36,007 nt of DNA from a virus: UHGV virus genome UHGV-0135626, one strand, 5' to 3'. Shown in pieces: positions 22,218-35,631 of the stretch (positions within the stretch are counted from its first letter, which is position 1; each line of letters opens with the position of its first letter). Both the position numbers and the translations under genes were made by a program. Below the pieces are notes generated by a model. It was not told the origin of the DNA. It saw nothing but the letters and a program-made list of their open reading frames with translations, and ran no database searches.

Positions 22218-23007
22218 TAAAGCAATCCCTGAGCTTGGCTCTGACGTTATGCAGCAAATCTATCTCTGCGCCATAAATCGCTACCCTAATGAAGCGTGTG
22301 GCTTTCTGGTTAGAACTAATGGCGACAAATATCGCTTTATGGAAGCGCGGAATGTATCGGAGAACCCGCAGAACACTTTTGTAATGCACGTTGACGACAT
22401 TATAGCGGCAGAGGATGCAGGTGACGTAATTGCAATCTGGCATTCACATACTGATGAATCAGCAGAAGCATCTGATGCCGATCGTGCTGGCTGTGAAGCG
22501 ACGGAAGTTCCGTGGATGATTCTGGCTATTCGCAAGAATGTTGAGGGAGATGCCCCTTTCCATTTTAGCGAGATGAATGTGATCACACCTGATGGTTTCG
22601 AAATGCCATACCTGGGCAGACCGTATATATTTGGCGTATTCGATTGCTGGATGTTGTGTCGGGACTATCTGAAGCGTGAGTTTAACGTCGAGCTTAACCC
22701 GAACGCACACCTGCATATCCCATCATGGTACACCGGCGATAACGACATTCTCGACAAGAACTACCGAAACGAAGGATTGGTACGGCTTGCGCCCGGAACA
22801 GAGCCTCAACGTGGGGACGTCTTCTTTATCCAATACGGAAAAATGCCCGATCACTGCGCGGTTTATATCGGCGATGGAATGATTCTTCATCACCAAATCG
22901 ACCGTCTTAGTTGTCGTGCTTATTACGGCGGAATGTATCAGAAACATACGACGCATCACTTGCGTCACAGAGACTTGCTCAAGGGAGATGAGACGTGTCT
23001 GAGTTAG
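22210..23007 (+). CDS. Tail assembly protein (lambda gpK-like) with JAB/MPN and NlpC/P60-like regions
   Basis: JAMM metalloprotease motif HSHTDESAEASD (H-x-H-x7-S-x2-D); downstream Cys and His residues consistent with an NlpC/P60 domain. Start at ATG 22210 (SD GGAG 9 nt upstream) preferred over the track start 22183. Confidence 0.75.
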   Translation: MGNKAIPELGSDVMQQIYLCAINRYPNEACGFLVRTNGDKYRFMEARNVSENPQNTFVMHVDDIIAAEDAGDVIAIWHSHTDESAEASDADRAGCEATEVPWMILAIRKNVEGDAPFHFSEMNVITPDGFEMPYLGRPYIFGVFDCWMLCRDYLKREFNVELNPNAHLHIPSWYTGDNDILDKNYRNEGLVRLAPGTEPQRGDVFFIQYGKMPDHCAVYIGDGMILHHQIDRLSCRAYYGGMYQKHTTHHLRHRDLLKGDETCLS

Positions 23008-23588
23008 TTCATGTGCAGCTTGGTGGCCCTATGGCCAAACATTTTGGCCGCCACTGGCATCTAAAGGTGCGCAATACAAAACAGGCTCTGGATTTAATTG
23101 AGGCCAACAAGCCAGGGTTTAAAGCATGGATGAAGCGCAACATCAAAACCTATGACAGATACCACATCCAGATCACCAATAAACAGGGCCACAAGTGGTC
23201 TGTGGACGAGAGTGAATATCAGATGATGGGGCAGTCTGACAACATTGCCAAAATCCGCATTACCCCTGTTCCGCGAGGAAGCGGCGGATCTGCTTTTGGG
23301 TGGTTTCAGACGGTAGTAGGGGCCGCTTTGTTGGTTGTATCGGCGGTAATGATGCCTGCTTTAGCACCTCTCGGTTTGTCACTAATGATGGGCGGCATAT
23401 CACAAATCATATCGCCGCAAGCCACTAACGAAAGTGTGAGACAGGCAGATAACTCGAACTCTTATTATTTCGACGGCCCTCAAAATACAGAAAACCAGGG
23501 CAACCCAGTACAACTTATCTATGGCGAGGAAATTCTGGTTGGCTCACAGGTTGTGAGTTCTTCAATCACGATTGACCAGCTAATGTAA
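22995..23588 (+). CDS. Tail assembly protein (lambda gpI-like)
   Basis: 197 aa, GTG start with SD AGGGAG 7 nt upstream, overlapping the K-like stop. Hydrophobic middle segment; position between the K-like and J-like genes. Confidence 0.65.
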   Translation: MSELVHVQLGGPMAKHFGRHWHLKVRNTKQALDLIEANKPGFKAWMKRNIKTYDRYHIQITNKQGHKWSVDESEYQMMGQSDNIAKIRITPVPRGSGGSAFGWFQTVVGAALLVVSAVMMPALAPLGLSLMMGGISQIISPQATNESVRQADNSNSYYFDGPQNTENQGNPVQLIYGEEILVGSQVVSSSITIDQLM

Positions 23589-23605
23589 ACAAGGATTTTT
23601 TGAAC

Positions 23606-26600
23606 ATGGAACAGTTCAAGAAGAAAAAGCTACCGCTGTTTATTGCCGGTGCGGGTGGTAAAAAAAGCAGCAAAAGCTCCAGCCGTACACCGGTTGAAGC
23701 CGACGATACCGTAAATTCTCGTGCAATGGCCGCTATCCTCGATCTTCTTGGGGAAGGGGTAATTGGCGGTTTAGTAAATGGCGCAAGATCTATTTTTATC
23801 GACGATCTGCCGATTGTAAATGAAGACGGTTCCTCCAACTTCAGCGGAATCACATGGGATTTTCGCGACGGTTCGCAAGACCAGACTCCAATGTCTGGCT
23901 TTGATTTCGTTGAAACGCCTAAATCCGTCAATATCCAGTTAAAAAAAACACATTATGTAACGGTTTCAATCGATAACGATGAAGCTGATCGGGTTCGTGT
24001 CATCATAAAGTTTCCTTCTTTGCGAAGCATAGATAAAAAAACTGGTGACACGAACGGTACAACCGTTGAGTACAAGTTCCAGATAGCAAATGGCGACTCA
24101 ACATTTGTAGATGTGGTCGCAGAAGGTGAAAAAAGCGTTGGCATTAAGTTAACAGCAAAGAAGACAGGTGTTTATTACCGTAGCTATGAGCTGAAGCTGC
24201 CTAAGCCTGGACGCGCATACAAGGTTCGTGTAGTCCGTATTACCGATGATAACAGCAGCCAGTATCTCTATAACGATACATGGGTGGATTCAATAGGTGA
24301 GATTGTCGATACACCGATGAACTACCCAAACTCTGTGCTGGTGGGGTTGAAGGTTAATTCTGAGCAGTTCGGCAGCACTATGCCTTCTCGCTCTTATCTG
24401 GTGCGTGGCCTAAAAATTCGTGTGCCATCAAACTATAACGAATCCAGTAACACTTACGTTGGAGTATGGGACGGTACGTTTAAGCTGCTGTCTTCATCCA
24501 ATCCAGCCTGGATTCTTTTCGACCTGTTAACGAATGAACGATATGGGCTTGGCCAATTTGTATCAGAGTCCATGATTGACCTCGGCCAGCTGTACCAGAT
24601 CGGTCGATATTGTGACGAAGAGGTTGATGATGGCTTTGGTGGCAAAGAGAAACGTTTTGCAATCAATACGCAGATTACCAGTCGACAGGACGCATACCGA
24701 CTAATTCAGGATATTGCTGGAGCATTCCGCGGCATGGTGTTTTGGGCTGGTGGCATGGTTAACATCATGCAGGATAGCCCGTCAGATCCGGTAATGATGT
24801 TTACCAACTCTAACGTCAAAGATGGATTGTTTACCTATAAAGGTTCTGCGCGTAAAGATCGCCCATCCGTTGCGCTCGTAACCTACAACAACAAGGAGGA
24901 CGGTTATAAGCAAAACATCGAGTACGTTGAAGATCAGGACGCAATGCGCCGTTATGGTGAGCGTAAGACAGAAGTCGTAGCATTTGGCTGTACAAGCCGA
25001 GGCCAGGCCCACCGAGTTGGTTTATGGCTTTTGTATACAGCCAGAATGGAGTCGGATGTAATTACATTTACTGCCGGCTTAGATGCGTCATTCCTGATGC
25101 CTGGTGAAACCGTTCTGATTCAGAACAAATATCGCGCAGGCAAACGTAACTCAGGTCGAATTGTGGCGTTTACCAAAAACAGCGTCACACTCGATGCGCC
25201 TGTGTCGTTAGCCAAAGGCGGCTGCTTTATTCGAATACTGAATCAGGAAGGCAAAATCGTTGAACGCGATGTTCTTGAAACTGGCGAAAATATAACAAAA
25301 GTTACGTTTTCAAAAGCCCTGTCTTCGGCTGAAACGCCTGTTTTGAACGGCGTCTGGACTATTACAGAACCAGACCTCGAACCTATGCGCGTTCGCATTG
25401 TTAACATAGCACAGGGGGAAACGCCGGGTAGCTTTGACATCACCGCTGTTGAGAACAATCCGTCTAAATATGAGGCGATCGACAATGGTGCAACGCTTAT
25501 CCCGCAGAATACGACGGTATTGGACCCGACTTATTCCAAGCCGTCTAATTTGCAAATCACTGAAGGGACTTATCTCTCAAGCCCTGGCAACCTGTCAGTA
25601 AAACTGACTGCAACATGGGAAGGGAAATCTCCAGAGTATTGGATCAGTTGGCGACGTTCTGATGAAAACAATGTATCGAACTGGCAATCGGCGCGTGTAA
25701 CCGAAGAGCAATACGAAATCGTTAATGTTGCGGAGAATGGACGCTACGACTTCCAGCTGTATGCGGTTTCATTCAACGGTAAAAAAACAGAGATTATCAG
25801 TACCGTTTATCAGGTGCTGGGCACAATGACACCGCCAGATGCCCCAACGTCATTAACGGCCGTTGGAGACTATCGTAATGTGATACTGAATTGGGTTAAT
25901 CCAGATTCGGTAGACCTTGATCACATTAATGTTTACGCATCCCAGACCAACAATCTGGATACAGCGAAACTGATCGCAGAGTCTGCAAGCACCACCTTTA
26001 CACATGCTGGTCTTGGGGATAGCGAAACGTGGTATTACTGGGTTCGTGCGTCAAACAAGCGCGGTATGTTGAGTCCTCCGAACTCAAACTTGGGTACAGA
26101 GGCGACGACTCGCGATGTGCTGTCGTTCCTGACAGGCAAAATTACGTCTTCTGAACTTGGCCAGACTTTACTTGAGGAAATCGACTCAAAAGTATCTCAG
26201 GAGGCGGTGGATTCCATCTATCAACAGATGGAAGAAAGTCTGAAAATCCTCGATGACAAATTTACAGATGCCGATCAGCGGCTTGAAGAAGCTCAAAACA
26301 ATCTTAAAACGGAAGTTTCCGGTACTGTCAGCAAGGTGGAAGACGCGCTTAAGGAGGTTGCAAACTCTAACGCTGCCTTAATTCAGTTGCAGGAAACTGT
26401 ATCAGAGCAGGGTAAAGCTGTAGCTGGAGCTGTTGAGGCGGCAAATGCAGCACTTGACAATTCATCGGCTTTAATTGCGGAGGAGCGTGAAGCACGAGTT
26501 GAGGGTGACTTGGCAAACGCGAAAGAAATCGAGGCGATGAAGTCAACTGTAGATAGCAGTTTAGCCACCATTGAAGAAATGAAAAAAACCGTGGCTGAAG

Positions 26601-27766
26601 TTGAACGTTCTAGTGCCGAAGTTACGACAAACATTGAGGCATTGGCTAAAACAAACATCGATCTTGCTTTGCGTCAGGATGAAGATCAGCACAAGCAGAT
26701 GGTGAGTAATGCGAAGATCACCACAACTCAGAAGGCTTTTGCAGACGATATATCTGCAATGGCTACGAAAATGGAGGAAATTCGCGCTGAAATAAATGAG
26801 GATATCAGAGCTTCAATCACTGAAGAAACAACGGCTCGTGTAGATGCTGATAATGCTATTGCAAGCAGAATCACCAAACTTGAATCAAAGATTAACGATG
26901 ATATTTCTGCCGCAATTGTGAGTGAACAAGAGGCACGAGCTAGTGCCGATGAAGCACTTTCAAAAGAAATACTATCGTTACAAGCCAAAATTGAAGGCGA
27001 TATTAGTGCAGCTATATCTGAAGAAAAAATTGCCCGAGCAACTGCTGATGAATCTTTAGCACAACAGATAACCACATTGAAGAGCCAGACGGGTAAAGAT
27101 ATTAAGGCGGCTGTAGCAGAAGAGACGAAAGCCAGAACTGACGCTGATTCGGCTTTGGCTTCTAGTATCACTAATCTACAGGCGCAAACGAGCAAAGATA
27201 TTAATGCCGCGATTACGTCTGAGGCAACTGTGCGCACAAACGCCGACAATGCTCTAAGTGGACGAATTGACACCTTAAAAGCATCAGTTGATGGAAATAC
27301 AGCGACAATTCAAGAGCAGGCAACTGCTATTGCTGATACTAACAAAAAGGTTTCAACCGCGTGGACGTTGAAGATGGAAACGTCAACAAGTGGTGGGCAA
27401 AAATATGTCGCAGGTATTGCGCTTGGAATTGACACCACGGGGCTTTCCCAGTTTTTGGTGCAAGCAGATCGATTTGGTCTAGTTAACTCAGTTAACGGAA
27501 AGATCACCACACCATTTGTTATCGAAAACAGCGTTGCATACATGAATGGTGCGTATATTAAGGATGGTACTATCACAAATGCAAAGGTAGGTGACTTGCA
27601 ATCAACAAACTTCGTAAGCGGACGAGTCGGATGGCGATTTGGTAAAAATGGAACGCTTGAGATCAACGGCAATAGTGGCGGCAATGGGAGATTGGTTATA
27701 AATGGTCAGAGGATTGACGTTTATGATGACAATAATGTCCTTCGAGTGAGGATTGGTCAGCTTTGA
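23606..27766 (+). CDS. Host specificity protein / central tail fibre (lambda gpJ-like)
   Basis: About 1386 aa, the largest tail gene after the L/K/I-like genes; fibronectin-III-like segments and a C-terminal repeat region. Start at ATG 23606 (SD AAGGA); the track ORF starts with TTG at 23600. Confidence 0.85.
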   Translation: MEQFKKKKLPLFIAGAGGKKSSKSSSRTPVEADDTVNSRAMAAILDLLGEGVIGGLVNGARSIFIDDLPIVNEDGSSNFSGITWDFRDGSQDQTPMSGFDFVETPKSVNIQLKKTHYVTVSIDNDEADRVRVIIKFPSLRSIDKKTGDTNGTTVEYKFQIANGDSTFVDVVAEGEKSVGIKLTAKKTGVYYRSYELKLPKPGRAYKVRVVRITDDNSSQYLYNDTWVDSIGEIVDTPMNYPNSVLVGLKVNSEQFGSTMPSRSYLVRGLKIRVPSNYNESSNTYVGVWDGTFKLLSSSNPAWILFDLLTNERYGLGQFVSESMIDLGQLYQIGRYCDEEVDDGFGGKEKRFAINTQITSRQDAYRLIQDIAGAFRGMVFWAGGMVNIMQDSPSDPVMMFTNSNVKDGLFTYKGSARKDRPSVALVTYNNKEDGYKQNIEYVEDQDAMRRYGERKTEVVAFGCTSRGQAHRVGLWLLYTARMESDVITFTAGLDASFLMPGETVLIQNKYRAGKRNSGRIVAFTKNSVTLDAPVSLAKGGCFIRILNQEGKIVERDVLETGENITKVTFSKALSSAETPVLNGVWTITEPDLEPMRVRIVNIAQGETPGSFDITAVENNPSKYEAIDNGATLIPQNTTVLDPTYSKPSNLQITEGTYLSSPGNLSVKLTATWEGKSPEYWISWRRSDENNVSNWQSARVTEEQYEIVNVAENGRYDFQLYAVSFNGKKTEIISTVYQVLGTMTPPDAPTSLTAVGDYRNVILNWVNPDSVDLDHINVYASQTNNLDTAKLIAESASTTFTHAGLGDSETWYYWVRASNKRGMLSPPNSNLGTEATTRDVLSFLTGKITSSELGQTLLEEIDSKVSQEAVDSIYQQMEESLKILDDKFTDADQRLEEAQNNLKTEVSGTVSKVEDALKEVANSNAALIQLQETVSEQGKAVAGAVEAANAALDNSSALIAEEREARVEGDLANAKEIEAMKSTVDSSLATIEEMKKTVAEVERSSAEVTTNIEALAKTNIDLALRQDEDQHKQMVSNAKITTTQKAFADDISAMATKMEEIRAEINEDIRASITEETTARVDADNAIASRITKLESKINDDISAAIVSEQEARASADEALSKEILSLQAKIEGDISAAISEEKIARATADESLAQQITTLKSQTGKDIKAAVAEETKARTDADSALASSITNLQAQTSKDINAAITSEATVRTNADNALSGRIDTLKASVDGNTATIQEQATAIADTNKKVSTAWTLKMETSTSGGQKYVAGIALGIDTTGLSQFLVQADRFGLVNSVNGKITTPFVIENSVAYMNGAYIKDGTITNAKVGDLQSTNFVSGRVGWRFGKNGTLEINGNSGGNGRLVINGQRIDVYDDNNVLRVRIGQL
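26700..27340 (+). repeat. In-frame tandem coding repeats (about 28-aa units) within the J-like gene
   Basis: Six to seven successive units of the form D/E-I-x-A-A-I-x-x-E-x-x-A-R-x-x-A-D-x-A-L-x-x-x-I-x-x-L; the boundaries are approximate. Confidence 0.6.
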
Positions 27767-27859
27767 TTGTGGAAAAAAATAATCATTTCTGTAAAAATAG
27801 GTAGGTACTAACTTAATGGTGGGCATGGAACGCCCACCATATCTAGGAGCAAAGGATAA

Positions 27860-30205
27860 ATGTGGTACAGGGAAGGTACAATAAATCTCACTAAAGGAAA
27901 TAAAACTGTAGTGGGAACAGGCACAGCCTGGGGAGTGACGGCGAACGGCGTCCTTCCAGGTATGATATTGATTGGCCCCGATAATAAGTTATATGAAATA
28001 AAATCAATCGAGAGTGACACTTCGTTAACTCTTGTTGAAGCCTACGGTGGTAGCACCCAAACAAATGTCCCGTGCAGAATAATTACGACCTATGAAGGTG
28101 ATTTAACCCAATTTAGTGCTCGTTTTACTGCGCTTATGTCTCGCATGTCAGCCGATTCAAAAATGATGCGTAGTTGGTTGACTGCCGTGGATGAAATAAC
28201 AATTGAGCGTGAAGATGGCACGGAATTAACCGTAAAATCCCTTACGCAGATCGTTAATGAGCACAATGAGAACCTAGAATGGTATAAAGAAAATACTCCC
28301 ATAATTAACACCGCTGCACAAAAAGCTAAAGAGGCGGCAGCGAGCGCAACAGCGGCCAAAAAATCAGAAACTAACTCAAAAGCGAGTGAGACAGCTTCAA
28401 AGACTAGCGAAACTAATGCGAAAAATAGCGAGGTAGCTGCAAAATCGAGTCAGAGTGCTGCCGCAAACTCCGCTACCGCAGCAAAAAACAGCCAGGATGC
28501 AGCAGCCGAAAGCGAGAGTGCTGCAGCTGGTTCTGCGACTTCAGCAGCTGGATCAGCAACTGCTGCGGCTAACAGCCAGAAAGCTGCGAAGACGAGTGAA
28601 ACTAACGCAAAGTCCAGCCAGACGGCAGCAAAGACCAGCGAAACGAATGCCAAAGCCAGCGAAACTGCGGCGAAAAGCAGTCAGGATGCAGCAGCCGAAA
28701 GCGAGAGTGCTGCAGCCGGTTCTGCAACAGCGGCAGCTAATAGCCAAAAAGCTGCAAAAACCAGTGAAACTAACGCAAAGGCGAGCGAAACAAAAGCAGC
28801 AGCCAGCGAGACAGAAGCAACGTCAGCCGCAACAAGAGCAGAGAATGCAGCCAGGATTGCAGAAGATGCCGCTGATCCTGCTTCTGTCCCTCCGCTTCCT
28901 GATATCTGGCTACCCTTGAATGATTCTCTGGAAGCGATAACAGGGTATGCGCCGGGGTATAAAACAATAACCATCGGCAGCGATGAAATCACTGTGCCAG
29001 TTAATGGCATATGCCAATTTAGCCGGGCTTCATCTGCAACGTATATTGATAAGTCCGGGCATATTACCGTGGCAGGGAATAACGTTCCTCGTTTTGAAAA
29101 ATATGGTTTGCTGATAGAGAATCAGCGAACAAACATGTTCGTAAATAGTTTTAATCCTGATGCGTGGAATAAAAGCGGTGGTATATCTGTAACATCATCA
29201 ACAGATGAATTTGAGTTTAAATATGGACGTTTCACAGTAGGAAGCGACATAGCAGGAACGACAACAGGGAGAAATATATGCACAGTTGCTGGTAATAGAG
29301 GCATAGATGTGACTGGCGATGATCAGTACAGTAAAGGTCCGTATGTTACCGCGTCGTTCAGGGTAAGAAGTGATCTCAATGTTCGCGCACGTATCCGTTT
29401 TGAACGGTATAACTCGGAAGGATACACTTTCCTTTGTGACGCCTATTTGTCATTACAGACCCATGAACTACAAATTACGGGTGATAATGCCCAGCTATTA
29501 ACAGCAAACTTTGAAATCGATCCAGGTAGTGGATGGATATATTTTCAGGCAACCCTGAAATGTCTGCCAGAATGGGGAATGGTTGGTACGCAGTTGCAAA
29601 TTGCAGCCGACAGAGCTGTGGGGTCTTTTGCAACAGGTGACTGGATAGAAGTAACCACCCCGCAATTTGAGTATGGTGCTTGTGCAACTTCCTTTATCAT
29701 AACGACAACAGAGCCAGCTACTCGTGCATCAGATTTATGTAAATTTCCGCTGATGAAAAATATGTATACCATGCCTTTTACGTTCATGGTGGAAGTCCAT
29801 AAAAACTGGTTTATTTCTCATAATGCTGCACCGCGAGTAATTGATACAGAAAACCATCAGTCAGGTGCTCCATTTATCATGGGATTTGGCTCTTCTGGAA
29901 CTATCAGTCAGGACGGTTATCCCTATTGTGATATAGGCGGGGCTAACCGACGTGTATATGAGTCATGCGGAGTAAGAGATCTCGTTATGGGATTCAGGGT
30001 TAAGGCTGACGGCATGACATGCTCATTTGCAAATAAGCATATAAGCACAGAAACAAAAACAGTATGGAAATATATTCGTGAAGCTGCTGTGATTCGTATC
30101 GGGGGACAAACGACGACAGGATTACGACACCTTAATGGACATATAAAAAACCTCCGTTTCTGGAACAGAGCATTGTCAGATACGCAGCTTAAGGAATACG
30201 TATAA
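27860..30205 (+). CDS. Tail fibre protein with Ala/Ser/Glu/Thr-rich repeat shaft
   Basis: 781 aa: conserved N-terminus, low-complexity repeat region, then a Gly/Tyr/Trp-rich C-terminal domain with lower GC, as expected for a receptor-binding domain. Confidence 0.75.
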   Translation: MWYREGTINLTKGNKTVVGTGTAWGVTANGVLPGMILIGPDNKLYEIKSIESDTSLTLVEAYGGSTQTNVPCRIITTYEGDLTQFSARFTALMSRMSADSKMMRSWLTAVDEITIEREDGTELTVKSLTQIVNEHNENLEWYKENTPIINTAAQKAKEAAASATAAKKSETNSKASETASKTSETNAKNSEVAAKSSQSAAANSATAAKNSQDAAAESESAAAGSATSAAGSATAAANSQKAAKTSETNAKSSQTAAKTSETNAKASETAAKSSQDAAAESESAAAGSATAAANSQKAAKTSETNAKASETKAAASETEATSAATRAENAARIAEDAADPASVPPLPDIWLPLNDSLEAITGYAPGYKTITIGSDEITVPVNGICQFSRASSATYIDKSGHITVAGNNVPRFEKYGLLIENQRTNMFVNSFNPDAWNKSGGISVTSSTDEFEFKYGRFTVGSDIAGTTTGRNICTVAGNRGIDVTGDDQYSKGPYVTASFRVRSDLNVRARIRFERYNSEGYTFLCDAYLSLQTHELQITGDNAQLLTANFEIDPGSGWIYFQATLKCLPEWGMVGTQLQIAADRAVGSFATGDWIEVTTPQFEYGACATSFIITTTEPATRASDLCKFPLMKNMYTMPFTFMVEVHKNWFISHNAAPRVIDTENHQSGAPFIMGFGSSGTISQDGYPYCDIGGANRRVYESCGVRDLVMGFRVKADGMTCSFANKHISTETKTVWKYIREAAVIRIGGQTTTGLRHLNGHIKNLRFWNRALSDTQLKEYV
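28330..28870 (+). repeat. Imperfect tandem DNA repeats encoding the fibre shaft
   Basis: Near-identical segments recur about 190 bp apart, e.g. CAGGATGCAGCAGCCGAAAGCGAGAGTGCTGCAGC at 28492 and 28682, and AGTGAAACTAACGCAAAG at about 28588 and 28759. Confidence 0.7.
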
Positions 30206-30474
30206 TGCGGGATATAACATTACGATTCGATAACAGAGAACAGTTTAACGCAATTGTATATGACAGTGGCCTGTTCAGTCTTGAAGAAGAAAATGGGGTT
30301 CTTGTTGATGTTATTGGCTGCATTATTGATTACGAGGAGCCAGAAAACGAAAGATGTACAGGCATTGATCGCGGTGGTTTTTTCGTAAACATGAGGATTG
30401 TTGATAGCAGTAAAAACATATCTTCTTTAATGCCTTTCATTACGACAGATCAGCATGTAAGGACATGGGCTTAA
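30205..30474 (+). CDS. Hypothetical protein in the fibre cassette (possible fibre assembly or adaptor protein)
   Basis: 89-aa ORF with TAATG overlap with the fibre gene stop and SD AAGGAA. AT-rich; no motif recognised. Confidence 0.45.
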   Translation: MRDITLRFDNREQFNAIVYDSGLFSLEEENGVLVDVIGCIIDYEEPENERCTGIDRGGFFVNMRIVDSSKNISSLMPFITTDQHVRTWA

Positions 30475-30486
30475 TGGAGTAAGACA

Positions 30487-31527
30487 ATGGTTACAAAAAC
30501 AGTAATTCCTGATGACATCAAAACGCTAAAATCGGATGTTAGTAAATTAAAAACCGATCAAGGAAACTACGCAACAAAATCTTATGTAGACAATAAAACA
30601 ACATGGAATGGTTATTGCAATTTAATCTATGATCAAAAAACATTGCCAACAACTGGAACTATATTCAGCGGTAAGCTGCATTTGTCAAATAAGACTGGTG
30701 AAACGGAAAACGCTTATAGTGACATATATACCAGAAAAAATATTGATGGTACTAAAGATACAATGACGAGGATCGTCACACATAACGGGACAAAAGGTAT
30801 CTTTTGGGACTTTAGTGATCTTAACGGAGGAACTTTAATTTTTCCAGGCAGTGGTGGTTATCTTAAGATGGGGAACTGCCTCATGTCGTATGGTGTGCGG
30901 GGAAGTAACGCGCTTATTAAGTTTGATTACACCGACACATTACAGATCAAATATGCCAATCATGGGTCAACCATGACATTAAACACACAGGGAACCGCTT
31001 ATGCTGGTGTTACTGCTCAATTGTGGGGCAACTCCAGTCGTCCAGTTGTTTATGAAATTAGGGATGATGGCGGGCTTTTTTTGTTTTATGCACAAAGGAA
31101 CCCAGATAAAACCTATCAGCTTGAGATAAACGGGCCATGCAAGGCTACATCATTCGACCAGGTGTCGGACAGAGATCTTAAAGAAAACATTCAGGTTATT
31201 GATAATGCCACTGAGCGCATCAGATTAATGAATGGGTATACTTACCGTCTCAAGTCTAATGGTATGCCTTATGCTGGCGTTATTGCGCAAGAGGCACTTA
31301 ATGCAATCCCTGAATCAGTTGGTAGCACAATAAAGTACAAGAGCGGGGACAATGGGTCTGATGGAGAAGAGGGAGAAAGATACTATACCGTCGATTACTC
31401 AGGCGTAACGGGTTTGCTTGTTCAGGTAGCCAGAGAGTCAGACGACAGGATAACAGCACTGGAAGAAGAAAACGCAGAATTAAGACAAAGATTATCTGCA
31501 ATTGAGGCGGCGCTTGCGTCTAAATAA
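30487..31527 (+). CDS. Tail fibre protein with C-terminal intramolecular chaperone (peptidase S74-type) domain
   Basis: 346 aa, SD GGAG 7 nt upstream. Residues 227-234 SDRDLKEN match the autoproteolysis site of endosialidase/T5-type fibre chaperone domains; a terminal helical segment (EEENAELRQRLSAIEAALASK) follows. Confidence 0.75.
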   Translation: MVTKTVIPDDIKTLKSDVSKLKTDQGNYATKSYVDNKTTWNGYCNLIYDQKTLPTTGTIFSGKLHLSNKTGETENAYSDIYTRKNIDGTKDTMTRIVTHNGTKGIFWDFSDLNGGTLIFPGSGGYLKMGNCLMSYGVRGSNALIKFDYTDTLQIKYANHGSTMTLNTQGTAYAGVTAQLWGNSSRPVVYEIRDDGGLFLFYAQRNPDKTYQLEINGPCKATSFDQVSDRDLKENIQVIDNATERIRLMNGYTYRLKSNGMPYAGVIAQEALNAIPESVGSTIKYKSGDNGSDGEEGERYYTVDYSGVTGLLVQVARESDDRITALEEENAELRQRLSAIEAALASK

Positions 31528-31533
31528 TATCAA

Positions 31534-31556
31534 GGGGCCGAGCGCCCCGTTTTATT
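31534..31556 (+). terminator. Rho-independent terminator after the fibre gene
   Basis: GGGGC-cgagc-GCCCC followed by GTTTTATT. Confidence 0.65.
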
Positions 31557-31569
31557 GGGTAGGATGAAA

Positions 31570-31854
31570 ATGGATATAACACCTTTCCTTCATGCGCTTT
31601 GTGCTGTGGCTGCGCAGCTACTGATTGGTCTTTTTACCGGGAACTGGGTTTACGGGGCGATAGCCGGTTGTACGTTCTTCATTGCGCGTGAACACACCCA
31701 GGCAGAATATCGCTGGATTGAAATGTTCGGGCATGGCAAGCGTATGAATATGCCGTGGTGGGGCGGTTTTGATCCGCGCGCTTGGGATGTAGCAAGCCTG
31801 ATGGATTTTGCGATTCCACTTTTAGCGTGCACATTATTATATATTTTTATTTAA
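31570..31854 (+). CDS. Small membrane protein with two predicted transmembrane helices (holin, moron or exclusion protein)
   Basis: About 94 aa from ATG 31570 (SD AGGA 5 nt upstream); hydrophobic segments AVAAQLLIGLFTGNWVYGAIAGCTFFIA and ASLMDFAIPLLACTLLYIFI. Lies between a terminator and an AT-rich promoter region. Confidence 0.45.
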   Translation: MDITPFLHALCAVAAQLLIGLFTGNWVYGAIAGCTFFIAREHTQAEYRWIEMFGHGKRMNMPWWGGFDPRAWDVASLMDFAIPLLACTLLYIFI

Positions 31855-31946
31855 TATAAGATTAACTGAGATATAGCTTACGCAAAGAAGGTAATAAATA
31901 TAAAGAGAGATGTTCTGAGGTAATTTATTGTTGGTGTTTAAGGTTA

Positions 31947-31976
31947 TTTACAGATAGGTAAGTGCATACCTATATA
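31947..31976 (+). promoter_or_regulatory. Candidate sigma70-type promoter with an embedded operator palindrome
   Basis: -35-like TTTACA (31947-31952), 18-bp spacer, -10-like TATATA (31971-31976). The spacer holds the perfect inverted repeat ATAGGTA-agtgca-TACCTAT (31954-31973). Confidence 0.45.
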
Positions 31977-32035
31977 AAAAAGATAAAATGTGATATAAAT
32001 CCGCCATCCCGATTTGACTTTTCATGGAGGAAAAT

Positions 32036-32359
32036 ATGTCGAACGAGATGGCGGGCGTAACAACAGAGCAAGTTGAGCGCATTGCCGCGATCGTTGCTCG
32101 GGAGGTTGTCGGCAAATTAGGTAAAGAGCTACGTGAAGAAATTGGCCAGGAGGTCAACGATCAGCTGAAAACCTACTTTGGTGATATGACCCCGGCGCAA
32201 CATAGTATTCAACACTCCAACCTGGACAAACTCCTTAACCGGTTAGATTCCATCTCCAGTGGGTTCTTTGGCGGCATTGTTTCTAAAATAACGTCGTTCA
32301 TTATTACCGCACTGCTTTTGGGGTTAGCCGCGTATGGCGTGAAAAATGGACTGCAATAA
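32036..32359 (+). CDS. Small protein with one C-terminal transmembrane helix (holin or antiholin candidate)
   Basis: Start at ATG 32036 with SD GGAGG 5 nt upstream (track ORF starts 32024). C-terminal hydrophobic segment ITSFIITALLLGLAAYGV; directly upstream of the putative endolysin. Confidence 0.45.
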   Translation: MSNEMAGVTTEQVERIAAIVAREVVGKLGKELREEIGQEVNDQLKTYFGDMTPAQHSIQHSNLDKLLNRLDSISSGFFGGIVSKITSFIITALLLGLAAYGVKNGLQ

Positions 32360-32372
32360 CAGGAGATCAAGG

Positions 32373-33065
32373 ATGAAGACTCCGAGAGGCATTCGTAACA
32401 ATAACCCCGGTAATCTTGATAAAGGATCGCCGTGGCAAGGTCTGGTTGCTAATCCAGACGAACCCCGCTTTTGCACGTTTAAAGACCCTGTTTGGGGGAT
32501 TCGTGCGCTGGCGGTGACTCTAATTACCTACCACGACAAACGTCGCGCAAAAGACGGCTCAAGTATCGATACCATTCGTGAAGTTATTGAACGCTGGGCA
32601 CCGCCGAACGAAAATAACACTGACGCCTATATTAATGAGGTGTCCAAAGCAGTTGGTGTAACCGCAGACATGATTATCGATCTGCATGATTACGACATCC
32701 TTCGACCTTTAGTTGAGGCAATCATTCGCCACGAGAATGGCCGAGGCCCGCTAAAAACGCTGAACACCTGGTATGCGGCAGAAGTTATTGAGGAAGGTCT
32801 GCGTCGAGCTGGCGTCGTTAAGCCGGTGAAAACGGTGAAGGCTGTTCCTGTAACGAAAGAAACCGCAGGCGCAACTGTTACAGCAGGTATTGGTCTGGCG
32901 CAGCTTGCCGATGTTATGCCGCAGATTTCCGCTGCTATGGATAAAGCACAAGGTCATATCTCTAGCGGGGATACAGTACGCATCATCTTCGGTATTGCCA
33001 CTATTGTTGTGGCAGGATTCATTGCCTGGTCGCAGGTAAGAAAACACCAGAAAGGGATGGTCTAA
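32373..33065 (+). CDS. Putative endolysin / cell-wall hydrolase with C-terminal transmembrane anchor
   Basis: Start at ATG 32373 (MKTPRGIRNNNPGNL) with SD AGGAG 7 nt upstream. Function inferred from position directly before Rz/Rz1; C-terminal hydrophobic segment IIFGIATIVVAGFIAW. No catalytic motif confidently recognised. Confidence 0.4.
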   Translation: MKTPRGIRNNNPGNLDKGSPWQGLVANPDEPRFCTFKDPVWGIRALAVTLITYHDKRRAKDGSSIDTIREVIERWAPPNENNTDAYINEVSKAVGVTADMIIDLHDYDILRPLVEAIIRHENGRGPLKTLNTWYAAEVIEEGLRRAGVVKPVKTVKAVPVTKETAGATVTAGIGLAQLADVMPQISAAMDKAQGHISSGDTVRIIFGIATIVVAGFIAWSQVRKHQKGMV

Positions 33066-33066
33066 T

Positions 33067-33318
33067 ATGCTAGGCAGCCTGATGACAAAGCTAAAAGTTG
33101 CTTTGATTATGCTGGCTGCCGTTCTTTTCGTTCTTGTCGGCGCTTACACGATGGGCGGAAATGCGGCGCGACGAGCAATGGAAGAGAAGGCAAAACAGGA
33201 AGACAGAAAACGACTTCAAAACACAGTGAAAGTGGTGAATGAGACGAGCAGTAAAATACGTCAGAAAGATGCTTCTGCCGTTCATCGTGAGTTGTATGAT
33301 AAGTGGGTGCGTCATTAA
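33067..33318 (+). CDS. Rz: Inner-membrane spanin (Rz-like)
   Basis: 83 aa with N-terminal transmembrane segment (LKVALIMLAAVLFVLVGAY) and a charged helical periplasmic part; a lipoprotein gene is embedded in the +1 frame. Confidence 0.65.
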   Translation: MLGSLMTKLKVALIMLAAVLFVLVGAYTMGGNAARRAMEEKAKQEDRKRLQNTVKVVNETSSKIRQKDASAVHRELYDKWVRH

Positions 33319-33454
33319 ACCACAAACAGCCAGCGTGTTGTTCTGCGATGGGGCTGAGCCTATCTATATCAGCAATAATGATGTAATGACTGAAGAAACC
33401 GAACGCCAAATCCTTTTTCACAATACGATGGGAGAGAGGGTTTGTGGTTGGTGA
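33239..33454 (+). CDS. Rz1: Outer-membrane lipoprotein spanin (Rz1-like), overlapping Rz in another frame
   Basis: 71-aa ORF starting inside the Rz gene and running past its stop. Lipoprotein signal with lipobox ISGC (MRRAVKYVRKMLLPFIVSCMISG|C); short mature peptide. Confidence 0.6.
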   Translation: MRRAVKYVRKMLLPFIVSCMISGCVIKPQTASVLFCDGAEPIYISNNDVMTEETERQILFHNTMGERVCGW

Positions 33455-33461
33455 TGTCGAA

Positions 33462-33483
33462 GTTCCCCTCAAATGAGGGGAAC
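33462..33483. terminator. Stem-loop between convergent genes; candidate bidirectional terminator
   Basis: GTTCCCCTC-aaat-GAGGGGAAC, a 9-bp stem between the Rz1 stop (33454) and the minus-strand toxin stop (33487). Confidence 0.55.
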
Positions 33484-33486
33484 ACA

Positions 33487-34008
33487 TTATTCTTCGAACA
33501 ATTTTTCGATAGATTTTGTAGGATAGAACAAAGAACGCTCGTTGTTACCAACCAGCTGGATAAAGCCTAAACTTTTATAAAACGCCTTGGCTTTGTCATT
33601 TAACGCCTCAACGAAAAGTCCATGAATGCCTACAGCAAGAGATGCATTGTACACAACGCGCATTGCATGTGTTACAAGCATTGAGCCAAATCCTTGACCT
33701 TGAAGGGACTTGTCCAAAGCCAGCCTACCCAAAGTAACACTTGGAACATTCCGATAAGGAACCTTCTTTTGTTTGCTTCTTGAAGGTAAGGACTCCTTTT
33801 CAAAACAACTACCTGACAAAGTGTAATATCCTAACACTTTTGGCCTTTCTTCTTGAGTGCAAAGCACATAAGCACGAAGAATTTTTCCCTCATGCTGCCT
33901 TTTTAAGTGGTTGGCTAAAAAGGCGTTTAGTGACTCTTCGCCGCAATCAAAACCGTTTAGATCATAATCTTTCTCTCCAGAGAAAATCTCTATCGTTGTA
34001 TTGCTCAC
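33487..34008 (-). CDS. GNAT-family acetyltransferase toxin of a type II toxin-antitoxin pair (TacT/AtaT/KacT-like)
   Basis: 173 aa; GNAT motifs (QGQGFGSMLVTHAM acyl-CoA loop, AKAFYKSLGF). Immediately downstream of, and co-oriented with, a DUF1778-type antitoxin gene. Confidence 0.8.
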   Translation of the reverse strand: MSNTTIEIFSGEKDYDLNGFDCGEESLNAFLANHLKRQHEGKILRAYVLCTQEERPKVLGYYTLSGSCFEKESLPSRSKQKKVPYRNVPSVTLGRLALDKSLQGQGFGSMLVTHAMRVVYNASLAVGIHGLFVEALNDKAKAFYKSLGFIQLVGNNERSLFYPTKSIEKLFEE

Positions 34009-34015
34009 GAGTAAA

Positions 34016-34285
34016 CTACTCCATGCTTTTCAGACGATCAGCAGCTCGTTTCAGCTTGTCGTTCGGTGCCGGAGGATTGCTTATAGCGTCCATAACCAGA
34101 TTCCAGGATTCTTCATTCAGAACTAGTCTACGGTGTTGCTCTATAACTTTCACGGCACGTTCAGATGCACTGCTAACCATAAACTGAGTAATGCTCTGGT
34201 TAGACATTGCGGCAGCTTCCTCGATGATGCTTTTATCGTCATCGGTTAATCTCAAATCGATGCGCTGCTTTTTTAGTGCTGACAT
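34016..34285 (-). CDS. DUF1778-type (RHH) antitoxin, TacA/AtaR-like
   Basis: Start at ATG 34285 (MSALKKQRIDLRLTDDDKSIIEEAA), preceded by a perfect SD AGGAGG with 5-nt spacer, giving 89 aa. The track ORF extends to a TTG at 34324. Confidence 0.8.
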   Translation of the reverse strand: MSALKKQRIDLRLTDDDKSIIEEAAAMSNQSITQFMVSSASERAVKVIEQHRRLVLNEESWNLVMDAISNPPAPNDKLKRAADRLKSME

Positions 34286-34324
34286 GTATTCCTCCTGATG
34301 GCCGTGATGTAGGAAGGCCATCAA

Positions 34325-34603
34325 TCTCCTCTGTTCAAACTGAGTTTTCGACTCAAAAATTACTTTAAAAGGCTATAGCCCATTACGTGTGCATTATCAA
34401 ATTGTGTACGGCATATCACCGTACTTGTAATATAGAGGTCATTGTTACTTTTTTCAACAGACAAATACAAGCTATGATTGCCAATTGTTAACCACAACCT
34501 ACCATTTAACCTTTACACCGCAGCCGTAGGCATTTAGGCTATATCACATATAAGAAAACAAGTTGTTTCAGACGATAATTATATACGCAAAGGGAACTCT
34601 CCA
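34325..34603. promoter_or_regulatory. Divergent control region between the toxin-antitoxin operon and parA; candidate operators or centromere
   Basis: 279-bp non-coding gap holding palindrome GGCTATAGCC (34371-34380), inverted repeat GTACGG-N7-CCGTAC (34406-34424) and near-palindrome AAACAAgTTGTTT (34556-34568) about 35 bp before parA. Confidence 0.45.
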
Positions 34604-35272
34604 ATGACCAAGATCTTTGTGGTTGGCGGCACAAAGGGCGGGCCTGGCAAATCCACCGTTGCCCAGCAAATTGCCGTTTGCCTGAAAGTCAAAAAGAAGA
34701 AGAAGGTTTATATTACCGATATAGATATTCAGCGCACGACAACGAGCTGGTGTGAAGACCGTCGACAGAACGAAGACCTTGAGCTGATTCCTTTTGCATA
34801 CGTTCAGGATGACATCATTAAGCACCTAAAATCGCTTCAGGGTAGAGCTGAGTTTGTAGTGGTAGATGCTGGTGGCTTCGACTCCGAAATTCAGCGACAA
34901 GCGATGCTGATGGCTGACGTTATCATTATCCCGCTGCGTCCTAAGCGTCGTGATTTGAAATCTTTACGTGACATCGATCCTATTATCGACAATGTTCGCA
35001 ATGTAAACGATAAAGTGAAGGTCCGCGCGGTCATGAACCAGTGCCCGGCTTTGCCATCACAAGTGTCTCGCATTCTGGCGGCTAAAGAGATTGTTGAGAC
35101 GTTTGGAATCGAGTCTGCGCCAGTCAATCTATATAACCGCAACGTCTATGATGATGCGGAAGAGTCTGGTCGTTCTATCTTTGAAATGACCGGTAGCGAG
35201 CGCGACAAAAAGGCGGAAGCCGAGTTTGAAGAATTTGTAGATTATCTGTTGAGTCTGGAGGAAGAAGAATAA
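34604..35272 (+). CDS. parA: ParA-family partition ATPase (small type Ib form)
   Basis: 222 aa with deviant Walker A GGTKGGPGKST at the N-terminus and no N-terminal HTH extension. SD AAAGGGAA; TAATG overlap with the next gene. Confidence 0.85.
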   Translation: MTKIFVVGGTKGGPGKSTVAQQIAVCLKVKKKKKVYITDIDIQRTTTSWCEDRRQNEDLELIPFAYVQDDIIKHLKSLQGRAEFVVVDAGGFDSEIQRQAMLMADVIIIPLRPKRRDLKSLRDIDPIIDNVRNVNDKVKVRAVMNQCPALPSQVSRILAAKEIVETFGIESAPVNLYNRNVYDDAEESGRSIFEMTGSERDKKAEAEFEEFVDYLLSLEEEE

Positions 35273-35631
35273 TGTCCATGAAAATGGGTGACCTAGCAAA
35301 GCGCAAAGAGCCTGATGCACCGGCTAAGAACACAACTCCTTTGCGCCAACCAGTCAGACCACAAGGACGCCCGACTCGTGGCAAAGAGAAAATTAAAAGC
35401 CGCACTATGTCACTGGAAGACGAATACTTCGAGCTTCTGGAAATGATGAAGTTTATCCCTCGTTTCGAGAAGTTCACCCGCTCTGATGTGATTCGTGCTG
35501 CTATTTTCCATCTGGCAGAGAAGTCACCGCAGGAAATCGAGGACATCGTAAAGCTGAACGAGGCGATCACAGCTGCCGATGTCACGATGCGTACCGATGA
35601 AATTAAACGCGAGTTGATGAAGAAAGGTTAA
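35272..35631 (+). CDS. Small RHH-type centromere-binding partition protein (ParG-like)
   Basis: 119 aa, translationally coupled to parA. Basic, probably disordered N-terminus and a C-terminal ribbon-helix-helix-like region. Confidence 0.65.
   Translation: MSMKMGDLAKRKEPDAPAKNTTPLRQPVRPQGRPTRGKEKIKSRTMSLEDEYFELLEMMKFIPRFEKFTRSDVIRAAIFHLAEKSPQEIEDIVKLNEAITAADVTMRTDEIKRELMKKG

Follow-up and report, generated by a model that had tools for sequence, protein, structure and literature searches.

A 36,007-nt stretch of the virus genome UHGV-0135626 (here called the window) encodes a side tail fibre whose rod, in our reading, is a repeat-built coiled coil and the site of a module swap; we put the probability of this whole explanation at about 0.8. 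The rod would link an SSU5-like N-terminal domain to a C-terminal, lectin-like receptor-binding region. Comparison with relatives shows the repeat anatomy of the gene, copy-number variants, mosaic junctions and multiple recombination events. The features are collected in Table 1.

Table 1. Coordinates of the fibre gene, its repeats and the adjoining cassette in the window
Feature	Position	Strand	Remarks
Side tail fibre gene, 781 aa	27860-30205	+	ORF; by alignment a mosaic, SSU5-type proximally and lambdoid-type distally
N-terminal domain, aa 1-151	27860-28312	+	Common to SSU5-like backbones whatever the distal part
Heptad array, 27 x 21-nt units, aa 152-340	28313-28879	+	Consensus A-[AK]-x-S-[EQA]-[TS]-[AN]; uninterrupted
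Cassette of ~3.5 kb common to lambdoid prophages	28345-31811	+	blastn
Cassette content: distal two-thirds of the fibre gene	from 28345	+
Copy 1 of the 189-nt unit (nine heptads, 63 aa)	28481-28669	+	Spacing 189; register opens at the AK(N/S)SQ heptad
Crossover zone, 253-nt block	28481-28733	+	94-98% identical in SSU5-like phage-plasmids and lambdoid prophages
First arm of the 35-nt exact repeat	28493-28527	+	Core SQDAAAESESAAA
Partial copy 2, six heptads	28670-28795	+	Without one AAGSAT(S) heptad
Second arm of the 35-nt exact repeat	28682-28716	+	Offset 189 from the first arm
Distal part	28880-30205	+	Short Pro-rich linker with conserved PLPDIWLPLNDSL motif, then beta-rich, predicted receptor-binding region
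89-aa ORF, phrog_1361	30205-30474	+	Function-less annotation; ORF list, PHROG
Second fibre, 346 aa, Peptidase_S74 domain	30487-31527	+	ORF list, Pfam
99-aa ORF, mostly inside the cassette	31555-31854	+	Homology ends at 31811

A side tail fibre gene on an SSU5-like backbone

The fibre protein matches phrog_1419 ('tail protein') over its full length (E 6e-289), and its homologues bear the annotation 'side tail fiber protein'. The gene starts 94 nt past the end of a gpJ-like ORF (23600-27766) that carries PF24801, PF13550 and PF09327. Judged by sequence, its host is an SSU5-like phage-plasmid: along the phage backbone, identity reaches 97.4% with Cyrano and 80% with SSU5. The fibre gene is also present, full length and at 97-97.6% identity, in two E. 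marmotae plasmids.

The N-terminal domain is near identical in PhiR41_1 and has ~75-77% DNA identity in Cyrano and SSU5. It begins MWYREGTINL..., which is the SSU5 type, and PF08400, the lambda-type N-terminus, had no match in the window fibre protein at E<=0.1. Pfam as a whole gave nothing above threshold on the fibre, N-terminal domain included; a sub-threshold Beta_helix match was disregarded. Against the PDB, the N-terminal domain gave a weak match to a 'distal tail protein'. We suggest that this domain attaches the fibre to the tail.

Further along the protein, the NCBIfam model NF048003 ('phage head spike fiber domain') matches aa 418-623 (E 3e-12). A predicted model with pLDDT 70-90 over aa 430-600 served as the Foldseek query for the distal region, and the search returned the phage Pa193 tail fibre, neurexin LNS domains, CBM40 modules and pentraxins at E 1e-4 to 1e-3. 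These matches suggest that the distal region adopts concanavalin A-like (LamG/CBM40-like) lectin folds and forms the receptor-binding tip. Such a lectin-like tip may bind sugar.

The heptad array contains a DNA-level duplication

Between these two parts lies the array, in which 25 of the 27 units have Ala at heptad position 1 and 23 have Ser at position 4. Each of the 11 relatives compared stays in a single heptad phase, over 28-46 heptads, and forms that share an array end differ by whole heptads (indels of 7 or 63 aa). ORFs in alternative frames within the array (e.g., 28455-28919) were taken as by-products of the stop-poor GCN/AGC repeats.

The longest exact internal repeat is 35 nt long, CAGGATGCAGCAGCCGAAAGCGAGAGTGCTGCAGC, and occurs at 28493 and 28682. 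It lies within a 60-nt stretch that is identical at 54/60 positions by hand count (28481-28540 vs 28670-28729). A 17-aa peptide is identical in both copies, with 4 synonymous differences in the DNA. The second exact repeat, of 18 nt, occurs at 28595 and 28763, an offset of 168, within a 42-nt stretch with 37/42 positions identical (hand count). The offset goes from 189 to 168 nt within copy 2 because that copy lacks the AAGSAT(S) heptad. A search for approximate repeats recovered both spacings (161 nt at 73%, spacing 189; 126 nt at 73%, spacing 168). In the window, Tandem Repeats Finder reported fragments of period 42 and period 21 but missed the period of 189 nt, because copy 1 has diverged in its left half; we demonstrate the period in the window through offset identity and through its relatives. 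Among the lambdoid relatives, the same program finds period 189 in PhiR47_1 with 1.8 copies at 91% matches.

Perhaps the repeat is a mere by-product of a low-complexity, Ala/Ser-rich protein and its codon bias? Amino-acid identity is 40-53% at every multiple of 7 residues, so DNA similarity is expected at all 21-nt offsets. Our null model consisted of 500 shuffles that permuted synonymous codons while the protein sequence and the codon pool stayed fixed. The longest exact repeat in the shuffles averaged 13.8 nt and never exceeded 30 nt, against the 35 nt observed (0/500 reached 35). Identity at offset 189 was 0.579, compared with a shuffle mean of 0.519 (sd 0.017), and again 0/500 shuffles reached the observed value. 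The period-189 arrays at 91% matches in relatives likewise stand against such a by-product, which we regard as extremely unlikely. Since the 35-nt repeat is longer than any that synonymous shuffling yields, we conclude that it is a duplication at the DNA level and not merely a repeated peptide. This bears out an earlier note on this DNA, which had proposed DNA-level tandem duplications encoding an Ala/Ser/Glu/Thr-rich fibre shaft at 28330-28870, a region that falls wholly within the array. The same note had described segments of 30-40 bp recurring about 190 bp apart; the spacing and the length hold for the 35-nt repeat, but exact identity over 30-40 nt is found in this one segment only, not in several.

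Copy number and age of the 189-nt unit

Array lengths in relatives differ by exactly 63 aa (189 nt), in both directions; one pair of relatives differs by 7 aa. One 63-aa copy is present in phage IdasGreatGrand and in P0003, and three are present in P0108, P0110 and P0112. Two copies are by far the commonest state (~109 of ~113 scorable 90%-identity protein clusters, ~96%). One further candidate for a copy-number variant, P0001 (718 aa, 63 aa shorter than the window protein), was rejected: it has a two-copy array and is truncated at its C terminus. We conclude that the array is fairly stable and that copy-number variants are rare.

The variants that do occur comprise whole units, and their junctions lie in repeated sequence, as unequal crossing-over predicts. 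The one-copy forms are copy 1/copy 2 hybrids joined at the exact core, and in the P0003/L014 variant the deletion junction falls directly after the core of the 35-nt repeat. The P0003 form, from a metagenome contig of 2 kb, may have arisen in assembly. At the E. coli prophage locus L013, Tandem Repeats Finder reports 3.2 copies of period 189 at 91% matches, and the perfect run of 257 nt at offset 189 in this three-copy locus points to a recent duplication.

Are the two copies in the window also recent, or kept alike by gene conversion within this genome, with an array that is unstable in the phage's population? The 35-nt exact repeat within a 60-nt stretch at 90% identity would fit such a history, as would the clearly recent perfect duplication in the separate L013 lineage. 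Variants of the SQ(D/V/A/N)AAA(E/Q)SES core are patchy between copy 1 and copy 2 across phages, and this could reflect occasional conversion. However, comparing orthologous copies from different phages gives 93-99% identity, against only 65% for the two paralogous copies of the window and 80-86% for those of the lambdoids. Homogenisation would leave paralogues more alike than orthologues, and we found the reverse; hence, the window's duplication predates these phages and bears no sign of concerted evolution. The synonymous differences within the shared 17-aa peptide, the identical gene length of 2346 nt in the two independent E. marmotae plasmids and the predominance of two-copy clusters also argue against recent origin or conversion, which we consider unlikely. 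The window's own two copies are thus not 'recent or homogenised', as had been supposed from the window alone. The expansion and contraction foreseen for such arrays are seen in the relatives with one, two and three copies and in the perfect run at L013.

The distal fibre was exchanged inside the array

The cassette that begins within the array is 93.5% identical to PhiR47_1 and 91.5% identical to PhiR11_1 over its whole length by blastn. Cyrano and SSU5 lack it, and their homology to the window does not return until 31936 and 31955. Other distal parts are found in the closest backbone relatives (Cyrano, PhiR41_1 and SSU5); in PhiR41_1 and most E. coli phage-plasmids, the array ends differently (T2, '...EPYKYVLQ') and the receptor-binding domains are others. 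Left of 28481, the window follows PhiR41_1 and is ~30% different from the lambdoids, and from 28530 onwards it follows PhiR47_1. On these alignments, we conclude that the window fibre is an SSU5-type N-terminus joined inside the array to a cassette of lambdoid-prophage type.

The switch falls in the crossover zone. A four-gamete test on 10 sequences of this block yielded 17 informative sites and 54 incompatible site pairs, with a minimum (Rm) of 7 recombination events in the 253 nt. The three chimeric phage-plasmid fibres, those of the window and of the two E. marmotae plasmids, differ in their crossover points. When N-terminus type was set against array-end type, all four combinations were found. 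Of 5426 complete E. coli genomes, 1052 contain the shared block; the number of places per genome has a median of 2 and a maximum of 9, and 86 of them are on plasmids.

That the distal part had been exchanged was anticipated in the earlier note, and the alignment to related fibre genes confirms it. The sign on which that claim leaned, a lower-GC C-terminal domain, was misleading. Along the gene, GC3 is flat (0.40 in the N-terminal part, 0.38 in the array and 0.36 in the C-terminal part), and the high GC of the array (GC2 0.68) is due to its Ala/Ser codons. In base composition the native N-terminal part equals the C-terminal part (GC 0.42 and 0.43), and 11% of same-size windows have GC as low as the latter. 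We therefore rejected GC as a sign of the exchange, which is demonstrated instead by comparing sequences.

Could the mosaic junction or the repeat number be an artefact of assembly, either a chimera of phage-plasmid and lambdoid prophage or a collapsed repeat? The block is 94-98% identical in co-resident elements, with its median of 2 per genome, and short-read assemblers could switch paths there. Furthermore, the full chimeric gene was not found in any complete E. coli genome in RefSeq. However, the same architecture is present in the E. marmotae plasmids CP146383 and CP072690, which are complete and circular and, at 95.5-97.3% identity, align colinearly with the window over 23000-34000 and 23000-30546. 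Downstream, the window rejoins the SSU5-like backbone where these plasmids do, and P0001 and P0003 share its combination of N-terminus and array end. We judge an artefact very unlikely. Nor did we find support for the array as the hotspot of assembly error that it had been thought to be: the two independent complete plasmid assemblies agree on the gene length. Partial homologues from draft genomes (548-688 aa) were considered as assembly breaks in the array and rejected, as all of them keep a complete array and end in the C-terminal domain.

Fold of the rod

Heptad periodicity across the array is unbroken, with a conserved a/d core. In an AF2 monomer model, helix is predicted at residues 146-276 and 288-337, with pLDDT of 35-49 in the array. 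A phmmer search against the PDB matched the array to residues 38-227 of DT57C LtfA (8hqz_d; E 8e-7, ~30% identical), a match that is strongly composition-biased (HMMER bias 49.7 vs score 31.0). DT57C LtfA forms a three-helix coiled coil that departs from the tail collar (PMC10713586). The proximal domain of Ur-lambda Stf, residues 102-393, has been described as a trimeric coiled coil that follows an N-terminal collar domain (PMC12617516), and the lambdoid homologues of the array carry the collar domain PF08400.

Alternatively, this Ala/Ser-rich segment might be a linker that is extended or disordered, or a shaft of beta structure as in the distal parts of many tail fibres. Model confidence below 50 throughout the array, Ala/Ser cores that are atypical of coiled coils and the composition bias of the LtfA match would all agree with this. 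However, a strict seven-residue phase is maintained over 27-46 repeats, with indels of 7 or 63 aa between forms that share an array end, aa 146-337 are all predicted helical, and the related rods of DT57C LtfA and Ur-lambda Stf have been described as trimeric coiled coils. A fold other than a coiled coil therefore seems improbable to us. Modelling and analogy point to a rod that is probably an alpha-helical, trimeric coiled coil, ~28 nm long. Its three strands would run parallel, with Ala at 'a' and Ser at 'd'. Both residues are unusually small for a core.

A model for the growth and exchange of the rod

We propose that tandem duplication built the array in two stages, starting with 21-nt units and continuing with a 189-nt block that spans nine heptads. 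Because all units are in frame and keep the heptad register, unequal crossing-over between copies would add or remove whole 63-aa segments (~9 nm) and leave the rod intact. The conserved DNA at 28481-28733 would be the substrate for homologous recombination, because the block is common to lambdoid prophages and phage-plasmids that are often co-resident in Escherichia. By this putative pathway, the window fibre would be a recombinant that has an SSU5-type head and its first eight heptads, followed by a lambdoid rod end, the receptor-binding domain and two to three downstream genes. The conservation of the block may simply reflect recent transfers.

Has the repeat design been selected for evolvability, with the ~250-nt block kept as a shared 'linker' for repeated trade of a 3.5-kb host-range cassette and the 63-aa unit tuning the reach of the fibre? 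We regard this as a tentative idea, possible and rather doubtful.

The locus is an ordinary but clearly documented case of known tail-fibre mosaicism, and it reveals no new mechanism. It offers a clean example, at base level, of host-recognition modules moving between integrated lambdoid prophages and phage-plasmids, through a junction that has been used several times in nature with the heptad register preserved. A search of the literature on tail-fibre recombination in phage-plasmids and SSU5 found nothing specific to this locus. Practical uses may lie in the design of chimeric side fibres, as for lambda-derived delivery particles, and in host-range prediction for phage-plasmids, a group in which some members carry resistance genes. 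When the N-terminus of lambda Stf is joined to foreign C-termini by engineering, the resulting fusions are functional (PMC11338833).

Comparison with known systems

The window fibre resembles lambda Stf in having an Ala/Ser-rich heptad rod right after the attachment domain and in its place after the gene for the central fibre, J (optionally after lom). Lambdoid genes annotated as Stf have 85-97% DNA identity to the window array and distal part from 28345. The same group takes in the 'prophage tail fiber N-terminal domain-containing' proteins encoded by lambdoid prophages of E. coli. The two fibres differ at both ends. The collar domain of lambda Stf docks on the junction of tail tube and gpM; the 151-aa N-terminus in the window is of SSU5 type and not the PF08400 collar (Stf residues 1-91). 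Distally, the lambda tip is gp37-like and binds OmpC, whereas the window tip is a predicted ConA-like lectin region. Lambda Stf is followed by the assembly protein Tfa; downstream of the window fibre there is no Tfa-type gene, and its place is taken by the 89-aa ORF and another fibre, which carries an S74 chaperone domain.

A second comparison is with T5 pb1 and LtfA (PDB 8HQZ), the L-shaped or lateral tail fibre of the T5-like phage DT57C. LtfA is likewise a siphovirus side fibre beside a central fibre, and no other PDB sequence matched the array significantly. LtfA differs in that its attachment requires a separate collar protein, LtfC, and the distal parts are unrelated. A further group of known fibres consists of SSU5 gp21, Cyrano CYRAN_21 and the fibre of PhiR41_1, which share with the window the backbone, the N-terminal domain, the place after the gpJ-like gene and the heptad phase. 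In SSU5 and Cyrano, however, the rod has ~46 degenerate heptads and the distal parts are long and unrelated (1260 and 1341 aa).

A coiled coil built of repeats, with a variable number of segments, is known from T4 fibritin. Classical tail-fibre mosaicism, as in P2 H, Mu S, P1 S, lambda stf and T4 gp37, involves horizontal exchange of distal modules between unrelated phages at conserved stretches of the fibre gene. The present case departs from this classical picture in two respects: lambdoid prophages, which are integrated, exchange with phage-plasmids, which are extrachromosomal, and crossovers fall in a defined zone of 253 nt that lies within a higher-order repeat of 189 nt.

A side tail fibre gene on a phage-plasmid backbone

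Backbone matches identify the window as part of an SSU5-like phage-plasmid. Positions 12000-36007 align, with gaps in coverage, to Escherichia phage Cyrano (108 kb; 97.4% identity), phage CMS-2020a (93-97%), PhiR41_1 (93.7%) and Salmonella phage SSU5 (80%). At 33487-35631, position and colinearity with annotated Cyrano and E. marmotae plasmids point to a GNAT-toxin/DUF1778-antitoxin pair (minus strand) and a ParA-like partition gene, consistent with a plasmid lifestyle.

The fibre ORF starts 94 nt past the end of the gpJ-like gene. Along its whole length it hits PHROG phrog_1419 ('tail protein', E 6e-289), and its homologues carry the annotation side tail fibre (Stf) protein. The SSU5-type N-terminal domain, or head (fibre aa 5-79, window 27872-28096), weakly matches PDB chain 23gd_B, 'Distal tail protein gp20' (E 0.003), which hints at how the head may dock on the tail. 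The C-terminal third of the gpJ-like protein carries helical repeats of about 30 aa, 'DI.AAI.EE.AR..AD.AL...I..L' (aa ~860-1230, window 26211-27270). Within this repeat region, identity to Cyrano and PhiR41_1 drops to 67-70% over 26211-27065, against 92-96% in the flanks; this is a second mosaic patch.

Features of the fibre locus
Feature	Coordinates	Strand	Remarks
gpJ-like central fibre gene, 1388 aa	23600-27766		PF24801, PF13550, PF09327
Fibre ORF, 781 aa	27860-30205	+	contains array region
Copy 1 of 189-nt unit	28481-28669		nine heptads
Copy 2 of 189-nt unit	28670-28795		partial, six heptads
Block (crossover zone)	28481-28733		253 nt, ungapped
89-aa ORF	30205-30474		phrog_1361; in cassette 28345-31811
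Second fibre, 346 aa	30487-31527		Peptidase_S74 (intramolecular) chaperone domain; in cassette, after 89-aa ORF

The heptad array contains a DNA-level duplication

Laid out in sevens, the fibre protein shows 27 unbroken heptads (aa 152-340, nt 28313-28879) with the consensus A-[AK]-x-S-[EQA]-[TS]-[AN]; position 1 is Ala in 25 of 27 and position 4 is Ser in 23. A higher-order repeat is superimposed on the 21-nt period: 35 nt match exactly at 28493 and 28682 (offset 189 nt, nine heptads), 18 nt match exactly at 28595 and 28763 (offset 168), and a repeat search returned 161 nt of 73% identity at a spacing of 189. Could a repetitive peptide alone produce these matches? We permuted synonymous codons while holding the protein fixed. 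In 500 shuffles the longest exact repeat averaged 13.8 nt with a maximum of 30, compared with the 35 observed, and none reached the observed offset-189 identity of 0.579. Hence the DNA itself was duplicated, and the tandem duplications that an earlier note placed at 28330-28870 are real. Alternative-frame ORFs of 64-154 aa also cross the array on both strands (28455-28919, plus strand; several at 28450-29010, minus strand); these are most simply stop-poor frames of GCN/AGC-rich repeats, not genes.

The array probably forms a coiled-coil rod

In an AlphaFold2 monomer model, aa 146-276 and 288-337 make up a single long helix; confidence is low, as it would be for a lone chain removed from its oligomer. 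The sole significant PDB sequence match to the array is LtfA of the T5-like phage DT57C (8hqz_d, residues 38-227, E 8e-7), which its authors describe as a three-helix coiled coil where it leaves the collar of the tail (PMC10713586). In Ur-lambda Stf, cryo-EM, cryo-ET and AlphaFold3 define residues 1-91 as a collar domain, which a linker joins to a proximal coiled coil at 102-393 (PMC12617516); homologues of the array in lambdoid phages have this very collar domain, PF08400, and then the same heptads. A single heptad phase is kept across 28-46 heptads in 11 of 11 relatives examined. Taken together, these observations suggest that the array is probably the proximal coiled-coil rod, presumably trimeric. 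Assuming a coiled coil at 1.485 Å per residue, its 189 residues would span about 28 nm and each 63-aa unit about 9.4 nm.

The distal part (aa ~345-781) is beta-rich and matches NCBIfam NF048003, 'phage head spike fiber domain' (E 3e-12). Foldseek matches (E 1e-4 to 1e-3) were the Pseudomonas phage Pa193 tail fibre, neurexin LNS pairs, CBM40 sialic-acid-binding modules and pentraxins. With their concanavalin A-like lectin folds, these hits make a carbohydrate receptor plausible.

The distal part derives from lambdoid prophages

Backbone relatives differ in their distal parts: Cyrano has a 1341-aa P1 S-like fibre, SSU5 a 1260-aa fibre and PhiR41_1 another domain. Window 28345-31811 instead matches lambdoid prophages (PhiR47_1, 93.5%; PhiR11_1, 91.5%); this cassette also takes in most of a small downstream ORF, and homology to Cyrano and SSU5 returns only at 31936 and 31955, respectively. 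The comparison is decisive, and we conclude from it that the distal part was exchanged.

The earlier note had also described a lower-GC C-terminal domain that looks recently exchanged. The exchange stands; the compositional argument does not. GC is 0.43 in the C-terminal part versus 0.42 in the native N-terminal part, GC3 is flat (0.40, 0.38 and 0.36 in the N-terminal part, array and C-terminal part), and 11% of same-size windows are as low in GC as the C-terminal part. It is the array that is GC-rich (0.53; GC2 0.68), owing to its Ala and Ser codons. We therefore rejected GC content as proof of exchange.

Base-by-base alignment located the junction. Up to 28480 the window equals PhiR41_1 except for two SNPs and is about 30% off the lambdoids; from about 28530 on it is identical to PhiR47_1. 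PhiR41_1 and Tritos-type phages split off after about 28730 into a different array end. SSU5 and lambda (PF08400) heads each occur with both array ends, T1 ('...AEDAADPASVP') and T2 ('...EPYKYVLQ'). The three T1-end phage-plasmid fibres (the window, CP146383 and CP072690) switch from phage-plasmid-like to lambdoid-like sequence at differing points within 28481-28585, and they differ in the lambdoid donors they resemble. Across ten sequences the block has 17 informative sites, 54 site pairs fail the four-gamete test, and Rm puts the recombination events at no fewer than 7. Multiple recombination events have thus occurred here.

Of 5426 complete E. coli genomes, 1052 contain the block, in a median of two and a maximum of nine places each, with 86 on plasmids, so co-resident substrates for homologous recombination are common. 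The window's own chimera was found in 0 of the 5426 E. coli genomes searched; it occurs in two E. marmotae plasmids.

Several further observations concern these elements. The second fibre shares 93% identity with a phage JenP1 gene labelled 'endosialidase-like', and GC falls to 0.34 at 30400-30800. At the second-fibre position the E. marmotae plasmid CP072690 carries a shorter gene, of 234 aa, a further swap inside the cassette. NZ_CP146383.1, with the same chimeric fibre, is a 166-kb IncFIB E. marmotae plasmid and may be a cointegrate; the usual SSU5-like elements are ~105-110 kb. In PhiR41_1 (locus L002, 4001-6365) the annotation divides the homologous fibre between two adjacent 'side tail fiber' CDS of 597 and 155 aa, a split that may reflect a frameshift, a pseudogene or a sequencing error; related phage-plasmid proteins have 787-795 aa.

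The duplication is old, and its copy number varies

Are the repeats recent or homogenised, as had been proposed? We excised both 63-aa units from nine phages for a DNA comparison. Between lambdoid phages copy 1 shows 93-99% identity, and within each array-end type copy 2 shows 95-99%. Set against each other in the same genome, copies 1 and 2 share only 80-86% in lambdoids and 65% in the window, whose copy 1 has a left half of the diverged SSU5 type. The 17-residue peptide SQDAAAESESAAAGSAT is identical in both window copies, yet its codons carry four synonymous differences. The duplication is therefore older than these phages, this comparison gave no sign of concerted evolution, and the proposal fails for the window's genome.

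The anticipated expansion and contraction are seen among relatives. In 120 protein clusters and 11 phage genes we measured how far the conserved PLPD(I/V)W motif lies from the array start. With an SSU5 head this distance is 193 or 130 aa (T1 end) or 206 aa (T2 end); with a lambda head it is 234 aa (T1) or 247, 310, 184 or 240 aa (T2). Within one class, lengths differ by exactly +63, -63 or -7 aa. About 96% of scorable clusters are in the two-copy state, and the window's gene length, 2346 nt, recurs in two complete E. marmotae plasmids that are independent of each other. Three-copy forms come from three separate contigs (P0108, P0110 and P0112). At the DNA level one three-copy locus (L013) has 3.2 copies of period 189, with a perfect run of 257 nt at offset 189 and first two units 183/189 identical, indicating a recent tandem duplication there. 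One-copy forms (phage IdasGreatGrand and P0003, the latter to be read with caution as it comes from a 2-kb metagenome contig) are copy 1/copy 2 hybrids; in the one-copy locus L014 the junction lies directly after the 35-nt exact core, as expected from unequal homologous crossing-over.

Draft E. coli assemblies contain dozens of 'partial' lambdoid Stf-like homologues (P0009-P0107; 548-688 aa). All have the full array and end within the C-terminal domain. Contigs thus tend to break within the receptor-binding domain or beyond it rather than in the array, probably because that domain is common to several prophages per genome.

Discussion

We propose that, because the rod's units are in frame and in register, homologous exchange anywhere within it, between copies or between phages, would leave the coiled coil intact. 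Between copies, such an exchange would lengthen or shorten the rod in steps of nine heptads. Between a phage-plasmid and a lambdoid prophage, it would replace everything distal to the crossover, and a second shared-sequence region at ~31561-31811 could close the cassette on the right-hand side. The N-terminal domain would remain with the backbone, presumably since its fit to that phage's tail is needed, while the lectin-like tip and the second fibre would move jointly as a host-range cassette. Lambda Stf engineered with foreign C-termini gives functional chimeras (PMC11338833), in agreement with such modularity. Selection of the block as a recombination linker is a speculative extension.

In its rod the window's fibre matches lambda Stf and the prophage relatives of Stf, and from 28345 on it belongs to the same DNA lineage. 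However, it has neither the defining PF08400 collar domain nor a gp37-like tip with Tfa, and so is not a full member of that family. Its rod resembles that of T5-like phage lateral fibres, and its head domain and gene position are those of SSU5-like phage-plasmid fibres. Comparisons of P2, Mu, P1, lambda and T4 long ago established that tail-fibre genes are mosaic at conserved internal stretches. To these, the locus adds a well-resolved case between phage-plasmids and lambdoid prophages, and a defined 189-nt higher-order repeat that varies in copy number too.
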